A DNA stretch of 64,000 nucleotides from Ignavibacteriota bacterium (GTDB taxonomy: Bacteria; Bacteroidota; Ignavibacteria; UBA10030), in contig OY969585.1 in assembly GCA_963701295.1 (NCBI GenBank), forward strand, positions 3,520,001 through 3,584,000. The letters are read 5' to 3'. Position 1 is the first letter of the stretch; each line of letters begins with the position of its first letter. This document shows positions 10,726-47,665 of this stretch, one piece after another. The position numbers were made by a program, and so were the translations under genes. The notes beneath the pieces are model-generated. The model was not told the DNA's origin. It ran no database searches and saw only the letters and a program-made list of their open reading frames with translations.

Positions 10726-11083
10726 CGTCGCTCGTAGCCTTGCTGCTCGTTAACTCTAGTATATGAAAAGTACTTTTCTGTTCCACGAAGTTATTACTTG
10801 CGATTACGCACGTCTCGTTGTGCAGAAGACAAATTACTACCCTCGCCGTTGCTCGAAAATTACTCCTGCTGATCTATACTTTGTGGAAAACAAATTTCCC
10901 CTATATCCCTGATTATAAATCTATCTAGAATACATCAGAAGGTCTTTCGTTTTAAAACATTCTTCGTTAGTTATTCTATTACGCCACAGGCGTATCAGTC
11001 TTTGGCGGAGAAATATTTTTTGCTTAGACTCTTGACATTGAACACAGTACATGGTTAGACGACAAAAAAATACTTTACGGCTA

Positions 11084-13412: not shown

Positions 13413-13953
13413 ACCTAACGGATGGCGGCTAAGTCCCGATTTGATCTTCGATCAAATCGAGTATCCCGTACAGCGGGACTGACGTGCTGATAACTTTTGC
13501 GCCAGAGGCGCATGTGCCTTGGGCACACAATATACACAAAACGAACAAAGTTCATTCTAAAAAGTTTATTATTAATAACCAAACCTCTGCTCGCCATGCT
13601 TGGCGTACCACACCTGCCCCGCGTTTTTGCAGGGCTCATTCCGTTAGCTTGAATATTATGACAAAGTCAAGCCGATTTCAAGAGTACCAAATTGACCGAT
13701 TTGTAATTCGGAATATAACCGACTCCGACCACACTAACGCACACACCACCAGGTGAAACGAGCTTTCTCCATTGAATAGCCTTTGCTGACGTACATACTA
13801 TCTAGCTTCTGCGACTTGAAGAGTTGGGTCTTCTTCAAGCTGTAGGCTCGATGCGCCTTGAGCCGCGTTAGACTTCTTCAACTCTTCCTTGGTGTATGAC
13901 TTGTGTACCTTCCGTTATTTATGTCTTTAGTCTAATGGAACCGCTGGTTATGT
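13413..13953 (-). repeat. attC interrupted by two hairpin insertions and an insert of about 290 bp
   Basis: acctaacgga at 13413, ctggttatgt at 13944-13953, consensus arms broken by inserts. Confidence 0.8.
13653..13939. mobile_element. Putative non-autonomous, non-coding element inserted in attC
   Basis: Extra sequence between AGCTTGA and ACCGCTGG of the attC arm, GAA at both junctions, weak sub-terminal inverted repeats, several internal hairpins. Confidence 0.5.
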
Positions 13954-22053: not shown

Positions 22054-22289
22054 AACATCCTCCTTTTTAAATAAAAAGTTAAAAAATTAGTATTTAGTTT
22101 ACATAATATACTAAACGAAACAAGTTCATGCTGATAACCAAATTAATTTATCCCCAACCAACGAGGTACCGAAAAGGTAATAATAAAAACGTCAACCCAC
22201 CATTAGCCATGAATTTTGCAGTGCGCTCTTACCGTCAGCTTGAGCGCCTGGTATGTTGAGTCTGTGACAATTATTTTCGTATCCTAATC

Positions 22290-22475
22290 CATTGGCAAAG
22301 TCATAGGAGAGATAGGAGCCGCTAGATATCTTCCCAGAAGAATATCGTTAACCAGATACATCTCCCTATGACTTTCCGCTTCTCAAGAATCTGAACAGTA
22401 CTTTGAGATCCATATTTCTTTCCCGTGGAATCCCGTATAACGCACGAGTCAAGATCACAAGGAAGCTGCCAATGT
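22290..22475 (+). ncRNA. Putative bridge RNA of the IS621-like element
   Basis: Stem aaagtcatagg-agagat/atctc-cctatgacttt encloses GAGCCGCT and TAACCAG (attC target match); downstream ACAGTAC matches the element's right end. Confidence 0.75.
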
Positions 22476-22513
22476 ATTTCTTCTCTTAACCTCTATTTCA
22501 AGGAGCTTTTGCT

Positions 22514-23537
22514 ATGACGATCTTAAAACAAACCATCGGTATCGATGTCTCTTACAAATCCTTCGATGCCAGATTCGGTACCATCAATACTCAACAAGAA
22601 ATAAACCTATCTGCTTCAAAATCCTTCAAAAACTCACTCGCAGGATTCAAACTCTTTCTGCGATGGCTCAAGAAATATATCCTCTCCGACGATATTCCTC
22701 TGGTCTTTGTCATGGAAGCTACTGGCGTCTATTACGAACACCTCTCTCACTTCCTCTTCCAGCAGGGGTATCAAGTTGCCGTTATCCTGCCCAATAAAAT
22801 TAGAAATTATGCCAAATCTCTCGAATCCAAATCCAAAACCGATCCTCATCGATGCCGCCGTCATTACTCGATTTGGCCTTGAACGACAACTCTCACTCTG
22901 GATGCCGCCTTCAGAGACTATAAAAACTCTGCGCGATCTCTGCAGGGAATACCACTGCCTCAAAGCTAACTGCACGCAAATTAAGAATCAACTCCACGCT
23001 CTCCAATCTTCCTTCAAGCCGCACAGAGAGTCCTTCAAACGCAAAACCCAACTCCTCAAATTCCTCGAACGGCAGGTCGCGCTTATTAAAAAGGAACTTC
23101 TCGCCTTAGTCAAGACCGAGCCTGATCTTCTGGCCCAGCGTCTCAAGAAAATCAAAACAGCTAAAGGCCTCGGCGATATGACCATCCTCACCGTCCTATC
23201 TGAAACTCGCTGCTTTGAGCTTGTCTCCAATCAAAAGCAGCTTACCAGCTACGCTGGTTTCGACATCGTCTTTAACGACTCTGGCTTGAAGAAAGGAAAA
23301 ACTTCTATCTCAAAAAAGGGCAATAAGTTTATCCGTAAAGCTCTCTTTATGCCTGCCATCTCTGCCTGCCGGGCTAATCCTGATCTCAAAGAACTCTATC
23401 AACGTCTTATTGCTAAAGGCAAAAATAAAAAACTTGCCATCGTTGCTGTCGCTCGTAAATTATTACTCCTGATCTCCACGCTCTGGAAATCTAATTCTGT
23501 TTACGTCCCCACTTATAAACCGATCCAACTCGTTTAA
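22514..23537 (+). CDS. IS110 transposase/recombinase, frameshifted near 22845
   Basis: 'IGIDVS', 'MEATGVY', 'KTD.IDA', 'DSG' serine motif, 'ISKKGNKFIRKAL', 'AVARKLL'. Confidence 0.88.
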
Positions 23538-23622
23538 TACTTACGCTGTCTCTTGTTCTTTGAAATATTTTTTACTCTAACTCTTGACTTTTACCACAGT
23601 ACCTGGTTAGGCAGCAATTGTA

Positions 23623-26282
23623 CTAACGAAGTAAAATGAGTTTTTTTGTTTCTTTAAATAAACCTGCATCCAAACAATAGAAATATATACCACTCGAGAA
23701 ATTCGATGCATCCCATTGTATAAGATGTTTCCCCGCTGTTTCTTCCCCATTTACTAAAATTGATACTAATCGTCCAAGAGGATCATAGATTTTCAACATT
23801 ACATACGATTGGGACGCAAGTTCGTAGCTGATGGTTGTTTCAGGATTAAAGGGATTGGGAAAATTATTGTTGAGTTTAAACTGTTTAGGGATTTCTTTAT
23901 GTTCTTCAACATCGGTCGTTTTTTGAAATGAAATCCAGTTGATGTTGAAACCTCCAGTGATAACCTCCAAACGGAGTACCTTATTCACACCCGATTTTAT
24001 TGTGATATTCGACAGGGAAACGGTCTTCCATTGCTGCCATCCGGAAGTATTAGGTATACTTATCGTGCCAAGATCGGTGCCGTCAAAAATAATTTTTAAT
24101 TTGCCACTTGCACTAACTGAAGCAATGCGCACGTCGAGCATTGATATATCAGCATTGACGTCAACCGTATAGGTCAACCATTCGCCATCACTAATCCAAC
24201 CGACATCATAGCCACCCCCTGTATCGCTGCATGTCTCTATATCCACGTCATCAGTTCTGTACTGACCGCCATTATTTCCGGCATCTGTATCAAAATAAGA
24301 AACACCGTTACTTCCGAGATCATAATTTTCAGCTTCTATTTTCCCGGGAATTTGAGCAGGCGTACCTGAATACGGACCGGTTTAATCAATGTTAATACTG
24401 AAGTTGTAATTGAAGGATAAGAGTAACCATCATTGTTCTTACCGGTAATACGATACATATACAAGGTGCTGCCTGATAAACTGGAATCGGTAAATACAGT
24501 ATCGTTGGCAATGGTACTTCCGATCGAATCAAATTTAGTATTGCCGTATCGTTCTATCAGGTAGCCGGTTTCATTAGAAATATTATTCCAGACAATCTTT
24601 GCCTGATTAAACGAAGGCGATGTCGCAGAAACGATAACCGGGGTTTCCATATTGTTTTGCATCTCTTTTGGGCCTATAGCCCAGGTGTAAGGCAGGAATG
24701 GATCTTCTTCATAATCGAACCAGTCGAAATCTGCAGGGTTAACATTTTTAAATCCATTCCCTGATGCGTACATTCCGATGAAAACACCGGTAAAGCCCCC
24801 GATGACTTCTGTGGACAGGTCTTTTGTTAATGCAGAACCTATCAGCTCGGCTGATTTTCCTTCCTGCTGTATCCAAAACTGGTACTGAAGGTCTGTTGCA
24901 CTGATCCGTAAGATGATATCGCCGTCAGGAATTTCTTTATAATTGAGTCCAACAACTTTATCCTGCAAATATTTCCGAAGCATTATCACTCGTTTCCCTG
25001 CAAACATAGTAATGAGAAGATCATAATGATTTTTATCGTCTCCACGAACCACCAAACCAACTTCTTCATTTTCAGCAGTTGGAATAAAACTAATGTTCGT
25101 TGATGCAACAAGATTAAATGCCGTTTGTCTGCGACCTATAAAAGCAGGCGAATCTTGTTCTTTAAAACTAATTTTTGAACCATTTAGCCTGAGAAATCCA
25201 GGTTTTGCACTAAGCGACCAATCTGCAGCATAAGGATTACGGATAAAATTCCAAGGCAGGCGCAATGCCACACTGTCGAAATTATCTCGGATGGAATCTT
25301 TTTCCCAGACATACTGAGGAAGATTTGGAGCGTTGTACACGGAATCTACGATTCCATTCGTTCCACCTTTAGGCCACCCATCGGAATTCCAGGCAATAGG
25401 TGCCAGAAATGTTTCACGACCTAAATGATGATAGTTGCCACCTTTGGGTCTGATACCGAGGCAAACCAACCACCAGCTACTATCTTGGAGTTGAACTAAA
25501 TCAGCGTGTCCAATAGCCTGAAAAGGATTATTGGGAACATCCTTATGCGAAATAACCGGGTTTATAGGACTTACAGTATAAGGTCCCCAAGGTGATTGAC
25601 TCCTCTGAATTACTTCCATGTGCTGATAACCCGTTCCTCCTTCAGCAGACATCAAATAATAGTATCCATTAATTTTATACAAATGTGAACCTTCGGGAGA
25701 TGCTCCACCAGTCCCTGAAGCTATCTTTGTCAATGGCTTAATGAAGTTGCCCGTTTTAGGATTCATTGTACCTAGCAAAAAACTACCATTATTGTCAGGA
25801 CTAACATAGTACATGCTATCGTTTTCGAACAATAGCGAAGGATCTACGTACCAGTAGTTTATCCAATGAGGATCGGACCAAGGACCAGCGGGATTTGTGG
25901 CAGTTACATAAAACTCCCCTTGAGAACCTTGCCCGCCATAGTTTGTGCAAATTACATAAAAAGTGCTGTCTTTATAGCGCAAAGTCGGGGCATATTGACC
26001 ACCCGAACCTGATGCACAACCCATCAAAGGATTGTTGCTTGCACGGGATAAAACATATCCAATCATTTTCCAATGCACCAAATCTTTACTGTGATATATT
26101 GGCAACCCGGGAAAATACTCAAAAGTAGATGTTATCAAATAATAGTCATCACCAACACGGCATATACTTGGATCAGGATTCATACCAGTAATTATTGGGT
26201 TTCGAAAGGTCGTTTGCGCAAGGACCTTAAATGTAAGGGCAATCAATCCTAAAAAAATTATTGTCGTTAATCTGTTCCACAT
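23623..26282 (-). CDS. GH43 xylosidase/arabinofuranosidase + FN3 + CBM6 + T9SS CTD, frameshifted near 24378
   Basis: 'NPDPSICRVGDDYYL', 'PEGSHLYK'; CBM6 'IPGKIEAENYD...GYDVGWI..GEW'; CTD. Confidence 0.88.
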
Positions 26283-32350: not shown

Positions 32351-32507
32351 GCCTAACGGATGGCAACTAAGCTGTCACGCTGAATATTTTCAATATACAC
32401 AAAACGGAACAAGTTCATGTTGATAAGTTTATTATTAAACACAAAACCTCTACTCGCCATGCTTAACGTACCACGCTCATTTGGTCAGCTTGAGCCGATG
32501 GTTAGGT
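32351..32507 (-). repeat. attC
   Basis: gcctaacggatggcaactaagctg...cagcttgagccgatggttaggt. Confidence 0.9.
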
Positions 32508-36090: not shown

Positions 36091-36424
36091 ATAATTTAAA
36101 TTTAAATTTAAATTTAACGGAGAATTTTTCTTTTTAGTATCAATAAAGCTTTAAATTTCATCGAAGTTCGGCTTGCACTTAACTATTTCAAAACGCAACC
36201 TAACGGATGGCAACTAAGCTGCGGCACTAAAAACCCTCAAGTTGCCGAAAACGAACCAAGTTTATTATAAAATATTTCAATCAATAATCCCTAAGCGCCA
36301 TGCGTAACATACAAACGCTCATACCGTCAGCTTGAGTTGCTGGATATTACCAAAAAGGAATCTCCCGATTATGTACATTGATAATTCTCTAGGTCACCAA
36401 CATCCACAATCTAAGGAGATTCCC

Positions 36425-37426
36425 ATGTATTACTCAGGTATCGATTTGCATTCTGATAATTGTTTTATCACCACTGTTGATGACACTGGTGCTGTCATCA
36501 AGCGACAACGTGTCGAGAATAACAATGAACGTGTTCTTGATTACTTCCACTCTCTGCCCGGTCCTCATCACGCAGTCGTTGAGTCTACCACAGGATGGTA
36601 CTGGCTCAACGATCTTCTCAGCGATCACGGCATCGAGCTTGTCCTTGCTCACGCCAAATATCTCAAAGCCATCAGTTATGCTAAAGTTAAAACAGATAAA
36701 GTCGATTCGCAAACTCTTGCTCTTCTCTTACGACAGGGACTCATTCCACGGGCTCACAAAATCAGCCGAGAACTACGCGGCCTGCGCGATACCATGCGTA
36801 TTCGTCTACGGCTCGTTCAGCAACGAACTGCCAGTCTTCTGCGTCTCTACAGTATTCAGACCAAATTTAACGGCTCTGTTCCGGATCCGTATCGTTTTCA
36901 ACTTGCTGTCTTGCAACATACCAGAGACACTTTTACTGCTCAGATCCTCTCGCTGGAAAAATCTCTCCATCCTGTGCTGATTCCCAACGACGATATTCAA
37001 CGGCTCTTGCACATTCCAGGTATCGGCAAGCTCACCGCATTCACGGTGTATCTTGAAATCGACGGCATTGAACGATTCGACTCCGATAAAAAGTTTGTCT
37101 CTTACTGCCGACTCGTCCCTGCTGCCGATAACTCCAATCGCTCTGTGCACCATCGCTCCAGCAAAGACGGCAATAAGTATCTCAAAATCGCCTTCTCCGA
37201 TGCCGCTGTTCATGCTATTCAGTACTATCCGGAATACAAACGCTTATTCCAGAAATTAGCTCGTCGCTCCAATGAGGCGACTGCGCGAACCGTCGTTGCC
37301 AAAGAACTTGCGAAGATTGTTTACTATGTCTTAAAAAACAAAACAATATATAAAGGTCTCAAAGGTCAGCCGATCAGCCGGCATAAATCTCAGCAGTGGC
37401 CGCGCCTCTCAAGCCCGCTTTCCTAA
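36425..37426 (+). CDS. IS110-family transposase/recombinase
   Basis: RBS AAGGAG; 'GIDLH', 'VEST', 'KTDKVDS', 'IPGIG', 'SKDGNKYLK'. Confidence 0.92.
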   Translation: MYYSGIDLHSDNCFITTVDDTGAVIKRQRVENNNERVLDYFHSLPGPHHAVVESTTGWYWLNDLLSDHGIELVLAHAKYLKAISYAKVKTDKVDSQTLALLLRQGLIPRAHKISRELRGLRDTMRIRLRLVQQRTASLLRLYSIQTKFNGSVPDPYRFQLAVLQHTRDTFTAQILSLEKSLHPVLIPNDDIQRLLHIPGIGKLTAFTVYLEIDGIERFDSDKKFVSYCRLVPAADNSNRSVHHRSSKDGNKYLKIAFSDAAVHAIQYYPEYKRLFQKLARRSNEATARTVVAKELAKIVYYVLKNKTIYKGLKGQPISRHKSQQWPRLSSPLS

Positions 37427-37700
37427 CTGATCCCGACTGCGTCGGGATCGTTCGCTGGATTGGGAAGAGAGTGCGCTGTGCCGTGGTAATATCTGGAACA
37501 TCTCGCTCGACGAGATACGCTTTCACCATCGTTTCTTCAATGAGTGAATGTAAATCCGTAAACTGGTTTGGACGGCATTGCTCTGGTAATCGCCTGTCTA
37601 TTCGATAGAGAACGCGGCATCGGCACGGATTCGGTCGTCCTTAATGTTAAAGAACTCTGCATTCCGATTGCGCGGAACGCATCGGGAGTATATTATTTAC
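37400..37700 (+). ncRNA. Putative bridge/seek RNA of the IS1111-like element, copy 1
   Basis: Two stem-enclosed loops carrying CCTAAC + GCTGG (target) and GGTAATATC + TAAACTGG (donor junction). Confidence 0.7.
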
Positions 37701-37740
37701 TTGACTCTTTCCTTTTTAAACTGGTTATGTTGCAATTGTT

Positions 37741-39857: not shown

Positions 39858-40011
39858 ACATAACGGACCGGCGCTAAGCTGCGGCGCTGATAATTTTCAA
39901 TATCTACTAAACGAAATGAGTTCATGCTGGTTCTTTCAAATTACACCAAGCCTTTGCGCGCCATGAATTTTGCACTACGCTCATTCCGTCAGCTTGAGCG
40001 CCTGGTTAGGG
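39858..40011 (-). repeat. attC
   Basis: Consensus arms present. Confidence 0.92.
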
Positions 40012-42592: not shown

Positions 42593-42829
42593 ATGAAATG
42601 CGCCCTAACGGATGGCAACTAAGCTGCGGCACTAAAAACCCTCAAGTTGCCGAAAACGAACCAAGTTTATTATAAAATATTTCAATCAATAATCCCTAAG
42701 CGCCATGCGTAACATACAAACGCTCATTCCGTCAGCTTGAGTTGCTGGATATTACCAAAAAGGAATCTCCCGATTATGTACATTGATAATTCTCTAGGTC
42801 ACCAACATCCACAATCTAAGGAGATTCCC

Positions 42830-43831
42830 ATGTATTACTCAGGTATCGATTTGCATTCTGATAATTGTTTTATCACCACTGTTGATGACACTGGTGCTGT
42901 CATCAAGCGACAACGTGTCGAGAATAACAATGAACGTGTTCTTGATTACTTCCACTCTCTGCCCGGTCCTCATCACGCAGTCGTTGAGTCTACCACAGGA
43001 TGGTACTGGCTCAACGATCTTCTCAGCGATCACGGCATCGAGCTTGTCCTTGCTCACGCCAAATATCTCAAAGCCATCAGTTATGCTAAAGTTAAAACAG
43101 ATAAAGTCGATTCGCAAACTCTTGCTCTTCTCTTACGACAGGGACTCATTCCACGGGCTCACAAAATCAGCCGAGAACTACGCGGCCTGCGCGATACCAT
43201 GCGTATTCGTCTACGGCTCGTTCAGCAACGAACTGCCAGTCTTCTGCGTCTCTACAGTATTCAGACCAAATTTAACGGCTCTGTTCCGGATCCGTATCGT
43301 TTTCAACTTGCTGTCTTGCAACATACCAGAGACACTTTTACTGCTCAGATCCTCTCGCTGGAAAAATCTCTCCATCCTGTGCTGATTCCCAACGACGATA
43401 TTCAACGGCTCTTGCACATTCCAGGTATCGGCAAGCTCACCGCATTCACGGTGTATCTTGAAATCGACGGCATTGAACGATTCGACTCCGATAAAAAGTT
43501 TGTCTCTTACTGCCGACTCGTCCCTGCTGCCGATAACTCCAATCGCTCTGTGCACCATCGCTCCAGCAAAGACGGCAATAAGTATCTCAAAATCGCCTTC
43601 TCCGATGCCGCTGTTCATGCTATTCAGTACTATCCGGAATACAAACGCTTATTCCAGAAATTAGCTCGTCGCTCCAATGAGGCGACTGCGCGAACCGTCG
43701 TTGCCAAAGAACTTGCGAAGATTGTTTACTATGTCTTAAAAAACAAAACAATATATAAAGGTCTCAAAGGTCAGCCGATCAGCCGGCATAAATCTCAGCA
43801 GTGGCCGCGCCTCTCAAGCCCGCTTTCCTAA
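42830..43831 (+). CDS. IS110-family transposase/recombinase
   Basis: Same protein as 36425..37426. Confidence 0.92.
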   Translation: MYYSGIDLHSDNCFITTVDDTGAVIKRQRVENNNERVLDYFHSLPGPHHAVVESTTGWYWLNDLLSDHGIELVLAHAKYLKAISYAKVKTDKVDSQTLALLLRQGLIPRAHKISRELRGLRDTMRIRLRLVQQRTASLLRLYSIQTKFNGSVPDPYRFQLAVLQHTRDTFTAQILSLEKSLHPVLIPNDDIQRLLHIPGIGKLTAFTVYLEIDGIERFDSDKKFVSYCRLVPAADNSNRSVHHRSSKDGNKYLKIAFSDAAVHAIQYYPEYKRLFQKLARRSNEATARTVVAKELAKIVYYVLKNKTIYKGLKGQPISRHKSQQWPRLSSPLS

Positions 43832-44105
43832 CTGATCCCGACTGCGTCGGGATCGTTCGCTGGATTGGGAAGAGAGTGCGCTGTGCCGTGGTAATATCTG
43901 GAACATCTCGCTCGACGAGATACGCTTTCACCATCGTTTCTTCAATGAGTGAATGTAAATCCGTAAACTGGTTTGGACGGCATTGCTCTGGTAATCGCCT
44001 GTCTATTCGATAGAGAACGCGGCATCGGCACGGATTCGGTCGTCCTTAATGTTAAAGAACTCTGCATTCCGATTGCGCGGAACGCATCGGGAGTATATTA
44101 TTTAC
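43805..44105 (+). ncRNA. Putative bridge/seek RNA, copy 2
   Basis: Same sequence as 37400..37700. Confidence 0.7.
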
Positions 44106-44161
44106 TTGACTCTTTCCTTTTTAAACTGGTTAGGTGCTGTGCCCAGCATTTGCCCGTTATT

Positions 44162-46705: not shown

Positions 46706-47665
46706 ATGGCCGAACAAAAGTTGTTAGATCGCGTCCGCGATTGCATACGAACCAAACACCTCAGCATTCGCACCGAAGAAGTCTATCTCAATTGGATCAA
46801 ACGTTACATCCTCTTTCATCAAAAGAAGCATCCTCGTGAATTGCGGGAACCGCACATTGAACAATTTCTCACTTCCCTGGCAGTGGATAGCCAGGTCTCT
46901 GCTTCCACACAAAATCAAGCACTGAATGCCATCTTGTTTCTCTATCGCGAAGTGCTTCATATAAAGATCGGGGACATGAATGAAATTATCAGGGCAAAGA
47001 GAACTCAGCGTATCCCTGTCGTCTTTACGAAAAAGGAGATTGAATCTATCCTGCAATATCTCCACGGATCACAAAGACTGATCTGTGCCCTGCTCTACGG
47101 CAGCGGCATGCGCCTGCTCGAATGTCATCGACTGCGCATAAAAGACATCGACTTTCTCAGAAAACAAATCATCGTACGCGAAGGAAAAGGAGAAAAAGAC
47201 CGCATAACGATTCTTCCTGCATCGCTTCTTACGCACCTCGAACATCAAATCGCTAAAGTGAAACTCCTGCATCAAGAAGATAAAACCGATGGCTATGGCG
47301 ATGTATATTTACCGGATGCCATCCGCATAAAATTTCCGCGGGCTGCAAAAGAATTACTATGGCAATATGTATTCCCCTCTTCAAGGCGTTCGATGGATCC
47401 GCTAACAGGAGCCGTCCAACGGCACCATATTGATGAAAGTGTTGTGCAACGCGCTTTTAAAACAGCGTTACAAAAATCCAAAGTGAGAAAAGCAGGAACA
47501 ATACACTCCTTGCGTCACTCATTCGCAACACATCTCTTAGAAGATGGGCACGACATCCGCACCGTCCAGGAATTATTAGGGCACAAAGATGTTAGGACTA
47601 CGATGATCTACACTCACGTCCTGAACAAAAAAGGTCTCACCGTCCGAAGCCCGCTGGATACATAA
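46706..47665 (+). CDS. intI: Integron integrase
   Basis: Tyrosine recombinase residues ('YGSGMR', '[10 protein letters not shown]', 'LGH', 'TMIYTHV') plus the IntI-specific insert 'VYLPDAI..KFP.A...WQYVFPS...RHH'. Confidence 0.96.

Follow-up and report, generated by a model that had tools for sequence, protein, structure and literature searches.

The closest described counterparts of the element considered here are the bridge-RNA elements IS621 and ISCro4 (PMC11208160, PMC11208158; PDB 8wt6, 9t56). To judge from the accessible portions of these sources, it shares with them a recombinase with DEDD and serine motifs, a CT core, a long left end in which a target loop is followed by a donor loop, a donor starting with ACAGTA, the layout of a junction promoter, and the handshake positions. 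The IS110 group, to which these elements belong, is marked by a left end longer than the right one and by an RNA situated in that left end (PMC11208160, in part). Targeting of attC sites has been published for members of the IS1111 group, namely ISKpn4, ISPst6, ISPa21 and ISPa25 (seekRNA; PMC11187229, citing Tetu and Holmes 2008 and Post and Hall 2009). As far as the accessible text of that report goes, they too are RNA-guided elements of the IS110 family with a fixed position at one attC end, but they possess a 3' non-coding region and sub-terminal inverted repeats, whereas the present element has a 5' bridge RNA. A further parallel is offered by ISPpu10, an IS110-group element whose bridge RNA is aimed at a folded repeat, a REP target with a stem-loop (bioRxiv 10.64898/2026.03.19.712850, available text); its target is nevertheless a different one, and the words attC and integron are absent from that text, as they are from the available text of the IS622 preprint. 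By title or abstract opening no paper on attC targeting by the IS110 group was found, most subscription papers and the ISfinder notes lying outside this search. In Durrant et al. 2024 (PMC11208160) the terms attC and integron occur only in the references, and the searched parts of its supplements do not contain "integron", file 4 there being free of the guide motif of our clade. The mechanism itself has already been described, and what is added here is the targeting of attC by a clade of the IS110 group that belongs to the IS621 branch.

The window, by which we mean the whole analysed stretch of 64,000 nucleotides, belongs to a 3.64-Mb single-contig genome of an Ignavibacteriota bacterium. An integron integrase gene (46706..47665, plus strand; TIGR02249 at 453 bits, cut-off 265), the only one in the genome above that cut-off, heads an array of cassette genes. 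These lie on the minus strand and are divided by a repeat family of 105 complete copies, mostly 150–200 bp in length, whose plus strand folds such that CTAAC pairs with GTTAG, leaving an unpaired spacer and a bulged G and T. The bottom strand of attC is characterized by inverted boxes in the order R''-L''...L'-R' and by extrahelical bases (PMC2727003, in part); the repeats, with their inverted boxes, bulged bases, location between cassette genes and linkage to IntI, are attC sites by these features. Among the 105 sites the end beside R'' reads TGAGCGC-CT-GGTTA in 47, with TGAGTTG in 17 and TGAGCCG in 9. Genome-wide, approximately 149 attC R'' ends are scattered over many separate clusters alongside the one integrase gene, and many of the cassettes in the window encode large proteins with a type IX secretion C-terminal tail.

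One attC is occupied by an IS110-group element of the IS621 branch (22250..23604, plus strand; 1,355 bp including one CT core), delimited by its junctions and by ends common to its relatives. It adjoins the R'' box with one base in between, in the orientation opposite to the cassette gene. On the left, the target TGAGCGC and the core CT at 22248-22249 (together 22241..22249, plus strand) correspond to the L'' box and spacer of the attC bottom strand, while on the right a second core CT is followed by the right target GGTTAGGC (23603..23612, plus strand), in which 23606-23612 are the reverse complement of the R'' box. The left end measures 264 nt versus 67 nt for the right end, and contains the predicted bridge RNA. 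The right end (23584..23602, plus strand) comprises a predicted -35 box, TTGACT (23584-23589), and the left donor ACAGTAC (23596-23602), and a predicted -10 box, TATGTT, lies at 22252..22257 (plus strand); the predicted circle junction TTGACT-17-TATGTT, which the initial annotation had pointed out, can be read in the sequence as it described. TTGACT is present in 37 of 38 right ends of the clade and TATGT in 49 of 59 left ends.

The positions that the same annotation gave for the CCTGG copies (22247 and 23602), the stem, GAGCCGCT, TAACCAG and the ACAGTAC copies (22395 and 23596) were all correct. Its interpretation of CCTGG as the duplication was not: across relatives the right donor guide changes in step with how the left end begins, in 56 of 60 rows and through four versions (CGT, GGT, CAT and CCT), exceptions coming from the window copy, from a single wobble and from three rows with a GA core that are misaligned. 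The core is therefore CT, which excludes a CCTGG duplication; the preceding C is shared by chance and the GG on the left is a variant. It also placed the element inside an attC, and the site is indeed one, but it has lost its R'/L' end: the remainder (22100..22247, minus strand), compared with an intact sibling at 39858, is deleted beside the crossover point. At 22100-22112 the occupied site is cut at the R' crossover point with L' gone, which suggests that the integrase acted at a secondary site or that a deletion took place. The site at 13941, previously offered as a comparable attC, is a collapsed mini-site rather than a whole one, and that at 32492, offered as a close variant, differs from the guide in the core. 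Such collapsed mini-attC sites (CTAA..GGAACCGCTGGTTA), with the whole stem missing, are seen at 13930-13952 of the window and in the flanks of L003 and L052 (L numbers denote individual loci), and relatives of the element occupy them. The cassette upstream of the occupied attC (23623-26282) appears to be a single glycoside hydrolase gene split into frames of 648 and 207 amino acids.

The recombinase gene (22514..23537, plus strand) is a mosaic and has a single surplus base at 22846-22848, after the third of its catalytic acidic residues and before the fourth. A programmed frameshift is ruled out because ten aligned relatives lack this base; an assembly error is possible but less likely, since the site is no homopolymer and all 11 IS1111-type genes of the same assembly are unbroken. 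A second genomic copy (255738-254492) is internally deleted, a third survives as a 3' remnant in the window (10827..11059, plus strand) ending ACAGTAC-AT|GGTTAG, and neither tblastn nor an RNA covariance model recovered an intact copy from the genome. Over 22248-22837 and 23237-23436 the window copy is 95–100% like the second copy, while between these blocks (22937-23236) it is 72–82% like it, with one 100-column block 98% like L035. Given the frameshifted gene, a left end that mismatches its own donor guide and the lack of an intact sibling in the genome, the window copy is likely unable to move by itself. Intactness is common among its relatives, 27 of 30 full-length copies giving one unbroken match.

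The window recombinase contains PF01548 and PF02371 above cut-off, and the intact relative L003 likewise exceeds the cut-off of NF033542 (217.8 bits). A profile of the clade matches ISCro4 (E 1.5e-40) and IS621 (1.7e-34), and the residues D11, E68, D110 and D113 and the serine of the DSG motif are invariant in alignment A1 and also align to ISCro4/IS621; the window copy encodes all of them, divided by the frameshift. In a quick tree, which carries a long-branch warning, the clade groups with IS621-like proteins (support 98), apart from ISEc11, IS5075 and ISKpn2, and so in the main branch other than that of IS1111; the window element also lacks the long 3' non-coding end of that group. Domains, profile matches, the 5' bridge RNA and the tree thus bear out the original call of an IS621-like IS110 element. 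The clade differs from IS621 in being only about 28–30% identical to IS621-like proteins and in targeting attC rather than REP, and its hosts, unlike those of IS621 and ISCro4, are Bacteroidota and Ignavibacteriota by the titles of the records in which close relatives were found.

The core of the predicted bridge RNA (22290..22474, plus strand) is bounded by a closing stem of 22290-22296 with 22468-22474, identified by covariation. Its target-binding loop (22297..22375, plus strand), delineated by folding, RNAalifold and covariation, consists of an outer stem, in which 22297-22313 pairs with 22360-22375, and an inner hairpin. The loop displays a left target guide GGAGCCG-CT (22315..22323, plus strand, with GAGCCGCT at 22316-22323) and a right target guide TAACCAG (22349..22355, plus strand), which complements CT-GGTTA and is followed by the handshake AT. 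In the donor loop the left guide ACAGTAC-T (22395..22402, plus strand) covaries with the right end, and the right guide ACGAG (22444..22448, plus strand), followed by the handshake TC, complements CT-CGT and mismatches the window copy's own CT-GGT. The RNA thus has two internal loops whose computed guides pair with target and donor, core included, in an arrangement that agrees with the layout in the accessible part of PMC11208160; all four guides share local context with the IS621 sequence of its Supplementary Table 1. The core of this layout had been recognized in the initial annotation, which overlooked the right donor guide and the second IS110-family lineage at the same bond.

A stable two-loop fold, which had been proposed as a check, was recovered in part. 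The target loop folds by itself (z -4.25; 0 of 200 shuffles), while no stable fold by energy was obtained for the whole left end (z -0.45) or for the donor loop alone (z +0.41); the prediction of the donor loop rests on covariation, which is seen in both loops. A six-helix structure has 85% of cells paired across 32 aligned left ends, as against 40–47% in slid controls, and compensatory double-sided changes affect 39 of its 43 pairs; pairing reaches 84, 98 and 93% in the helices of the donor loop and 68% in the closing stem. These counts lean towards the structure as drawn, because it was derived from the window copy and the RNAalifold result. The derived covariance model R1 assigns the window copy 182 bits by construction and detects IS621-like left ends weakly (E 0.016–0.5), and an Rfam search of the window gave no match. 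Unlike IS621 and ISCro4, the window element has no predicted 5' stem-loop (z +1.46), the closing stem instead joining the two ends of the RNA. The contigs of 8 public runs (6 RNA, 2 DNA) hold relatives but no circle junction of right end to left end; as contigs cannot show RNA ends or strand, these runs say nothing on expression. Viral contigs yielded neither a relative of the window element nor a circle junction.

Relatives were collected from genome contigs (11 loci), metagenome contigs (36 loci) and 401-genome samples of the class (13 with a match) and the phylum (13); with duplicates counted once, these gave 65 left ends for alignment and 70 readable right junctions. The permutation test of guides against flanks used 60 rows with 28 distinct guide pairs, the whole attC clade being collapsed to the window copy and L019, L071, L073, L075 and L078 omitted for missing or misplaced left ends. 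Agreement between left guides and the flanks of the same copies amounted to 3.85 of 7 non-core bases, compared with 2.37 when permuted, and that for right guides to 4.62 of 5, compared with 1.94; neither value was reached in 20,000 permutations (0/20,000 each), figures that are not strict probabilities because the rows are related. The covariation of guides with insertion sites, which had been proposed as a check among homologues, thus exceeds permutation on both sides. Two loci, L019 and L026, come from an unpublished genome (G367); L026 enters the permutation test and alignment A2 and both enter the tree, and the conclusions do not depend on them alone.

The aim at attC is a property of the clade. 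At 61% identity or more, 35 of 38 right junctions read GGTTA, two GGATA and one TGTTA, the insertion point of the 35 being fixed at CT|GGTTA; below 61%, only 1 of 32 reads GGTTA, and the guides there differ and fit other flanks. The proposed retargeting to attC is upheld by these junctions together with the covariation of guides and flanks, and a search for the same guides at non-attC sites found all 38 clade right flanks to be one of those three sequences. All 33 aligned left ends with TAACCAG are at least 61% identical to L003, and no other right guide occurs above 60%. In the quick tree, with its long-branch warning, the 18 TAACCAG rows cluster together with support 90, and their sister L007 has different guides, matching a non-attC site at 7/7 and 5/5. 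Outgroups (L014-L017, L021, L022, L070, L130) target other short repeats, CTTCGTG-like or GTAGAGACGC-like, and the lineage therefore hops between repeat families.

A covariance-model search of genomes of the order returned hold-out elements in 10 of 151; eight of nine new left ends with TAACCAG follow an L''-like flank, and in the ninth, L129, the guide AGAATGA follows the odd flank GGAATGA at 6/7. Of the 110 sites in the window genome that have at most three left mismatches to the guide, 92 are attC ends. At 9 of the 25 clade sites with both flanks a strong attC duplex was seen at the far end; in the remainder the flanks are short, a further element stands in tandem, or the far end has collapsed or is missing. 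IntI exceeded the cut-off in three of four clade genomes tested, and in outgroup genomes too. Two reduced forms were also seen: a mini-element with the target loop only (L131:1005-1148), in which the DNA of the left donor guide is joined directly to GGTTAGG in a manner resembling a deletion between two ACAGTAC copies, and a left end with bridge RNA at an attC with no transposase behind it (L134:1501-1688). That the clade of the window element comprises attC-programmed IS621-type bridge recombinases, of which the window copy is a dead representative, is well supported. Since guide letters change with landing site across relatives, it is likely that integron targeting in this lineage is separate from that of the lineage known before.

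Counts at individual guide positions, from which L056 (left flank a remnant of another copy) and L002 (guide deletion) were left out, indicate that positions 6-7 of the left guide are loose. Guides with GT or GC lay on GC sites in 12 of 12 cases, GA on GA in 4/5 and CG on CG in 3/6, and GG guides lay on GC (10), CG (5) and TG (2) sites, position 7 being mismatched in 10 of 17 (GC sites) or worse. In a basal subclade (L013, L058, L127, L129) both guide and target have GA at positions 6-7, with full pairing through the TC handshake kept throughout the attC clade, and GA may be the ancestral target variant. Handshake pairing of this kind was described by Hiraizumi et al. 2024 (PMC11208158, in part), and 7 of 14 outgroup guide sets show pairing between target position 7 and the handshake base of the donor loop (119 of 20,000 permutations). 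Five outgroups (L017, L018, L020, L080, L083) have a poor left fit of 2/7 each. The earlier claim that the guides spell the occupied site holds on the right, where the guide fits CT-GGTTA; the left guide fits only 4 of 7 flanking bases, mismatches being usually 0–2 according to the accessible text of Durrant et al. 2024 (PMC11208160). The start of the window copy is also unusual: of 43 aligned left ends with the right donor guide RCGAG, 42 start CT|CG and only the window copy CT|GG, a second case (L137) occurring among the 9 hold-outs. It may reflect descent, or else junction repair, a possibility considered by Hiraizumi et al. (PMC11208158, in part).

The integron hosts other IS110-family lineages as well. 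An unrelated IS1111-type element (26% identity to the window IS110-group element over 203 residues) is inserted at 36342..37722 and again at 42747..44127 (both plus strand). It has a short left end and inverted repeats close to the termini, and its 3' non-coding region bears a putative guide RNA. Each of its 11 genome copies, including the two in the window, lies at the CT|GGTT bond used by the IS110-group element, on sites with GAGTTG (7), GAGCCG (3) or GAGTGC (1) and never the commonest GAGCGC. Its likely target guides are CCTAACTG at the stop codon (~37422) and TTCGCTGG (~37451), and its likely donor guides GGTAATATCTGG and TAAACTGG. Relatives occur in 17 of the 401 class genomes; inspection by eye suggests one guide on the top strand, at the stop codon, and another on the bottom strand, which tracks the site (CGCCTGG in L001, GACTGG in L091). 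In L001 (2187-3580) and L051 elements of both types stand in tandem at one attC bond, and the junctions suggest that the IS1111 type arrived first. A second clade of the IS621 branch (L074, L077), about 40% identical and separate in the tree, enters attC-like repeats of 121–128 bp inside L'', 13 bases before GTTA and 12 bases from the bond of the first clade, at 3–7 kb from an integrase gene in two genomes. The loci L074, L077, L081, L082, L084 and L086 (G582, G483) have guides ATCGCCG-CT and GTTTAAG, for another attC family.

The reading that we favor, with a probability of about 0.82, is an IS621 cycle whose target loop is programmed for the R''-side end of an attC family. Intact relatives would insert into attC by RNA-guided recombination, the predicted target loop spelling the site. 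By analogy with IS621, excision would yield a circle, whose junction would place TTGACT and TATGTT 17 bp apart and might drive an RNA of roughly 200 nt. The donor loop of this RNA would read ACAGTAC-CT-CGT and its target loop (T/G)GAGCNN-CT-GGTTA, and the DEDD/serine recombinase would exchange strands at CT. On the attC bottom strand the product would lie a single base short of R'', oriented opposite to the cassette gene, and would part R'' from the rest of the site. As R''-L'' is stated to be essential in attC (PMC2727003, in part), this split would probably abolish attC function and freeze the cassette, an effect suggested for ISPa21 (PMC11616780, accessible part).

The main rival is that the RNA guides give the address but the attC fold is also required, as for ISPpu10. 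The strand displaced by the left guide would fold L'' onto L', and core-adjacent mismatches would therefore be tolerated. The frequent position-7 mismatches of the clade fit such help, the top strand of the element is the folding bottom strand of attC, and the left guide of ISPpu10 is itself constrained near the core and aided by a stem-loop in the target (bioRxiv 10.64898/2026.03.19.712850, available text). We nonetheless consider this requirement unlikely: sequence alone selects attC in 92 of the 110 genome matches, R' would compete with the right guide in the fold, and copies in L003 and L052 sit in collapsed sites devoid of an L' arm, albeit the collapse may postdate insertion.

A narrower alternative, less probable than not to our minds yet likelier than a requirement for the fold, is that a sibling whose left guide fitted better inserted the window copy, which gained its present left end later by recombination between copies. 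The mosaic structure of the window copy speaks for it, as does the left flank of the second genomic copy, GGTGCCG, which fits the same guide at 6/7; against this, CG guides are found on GC or TG sites in L125 and L134 too, so that plain mismatch tolerance suffices. Placement by a sibling is compatible with the guided IS621 cycle and alters only the history of the window copy. It is highly improbable, on the other hand, that the guide-like letters are incidental and that the element reached attC through the integron integrase or homologous recombination. Recombinogenic and abundant as attC sites are here (105 complete copies), IntI recombines in R' (PMC2727003, in part) whereas the bond used lies beside R'', and the covariation of guides and flanks in outgroups at non-attC sites contradicts it. 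Moreover, the 38 clade junctions have 37 distinct right flanks and therefore represent separate insertion events.

More tentatively, attC might be a recurrent attractor for the reprogramming of bridge RNAs. At least three IS110-family lineages in one bacterial phylum, namely the window clade, the second IS621-branch clade cutting inside L'' and the IS1111 type with its opposite RNA layout, could have evolved attC guides independently, two of them to the identical bond. Retuning of the left guide to the attC variant of the host, tandem stacking and use of the attC fold to tolerate core-adjacent mismatches might accompany this, and cassette arrays would hence be frozen or reshaped. The present findings add the IS621 branch to the IS1111 group in the RNA-guided targeting of attC. 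They also yield a series of naturally varying guides whose landing sites are known, core-adjacent mismatches included, and for which intact relatives exist. They further indicate that two bridge-RNA architectures compete for one bond in one genome, which bears on the fixation of cassette arrays.
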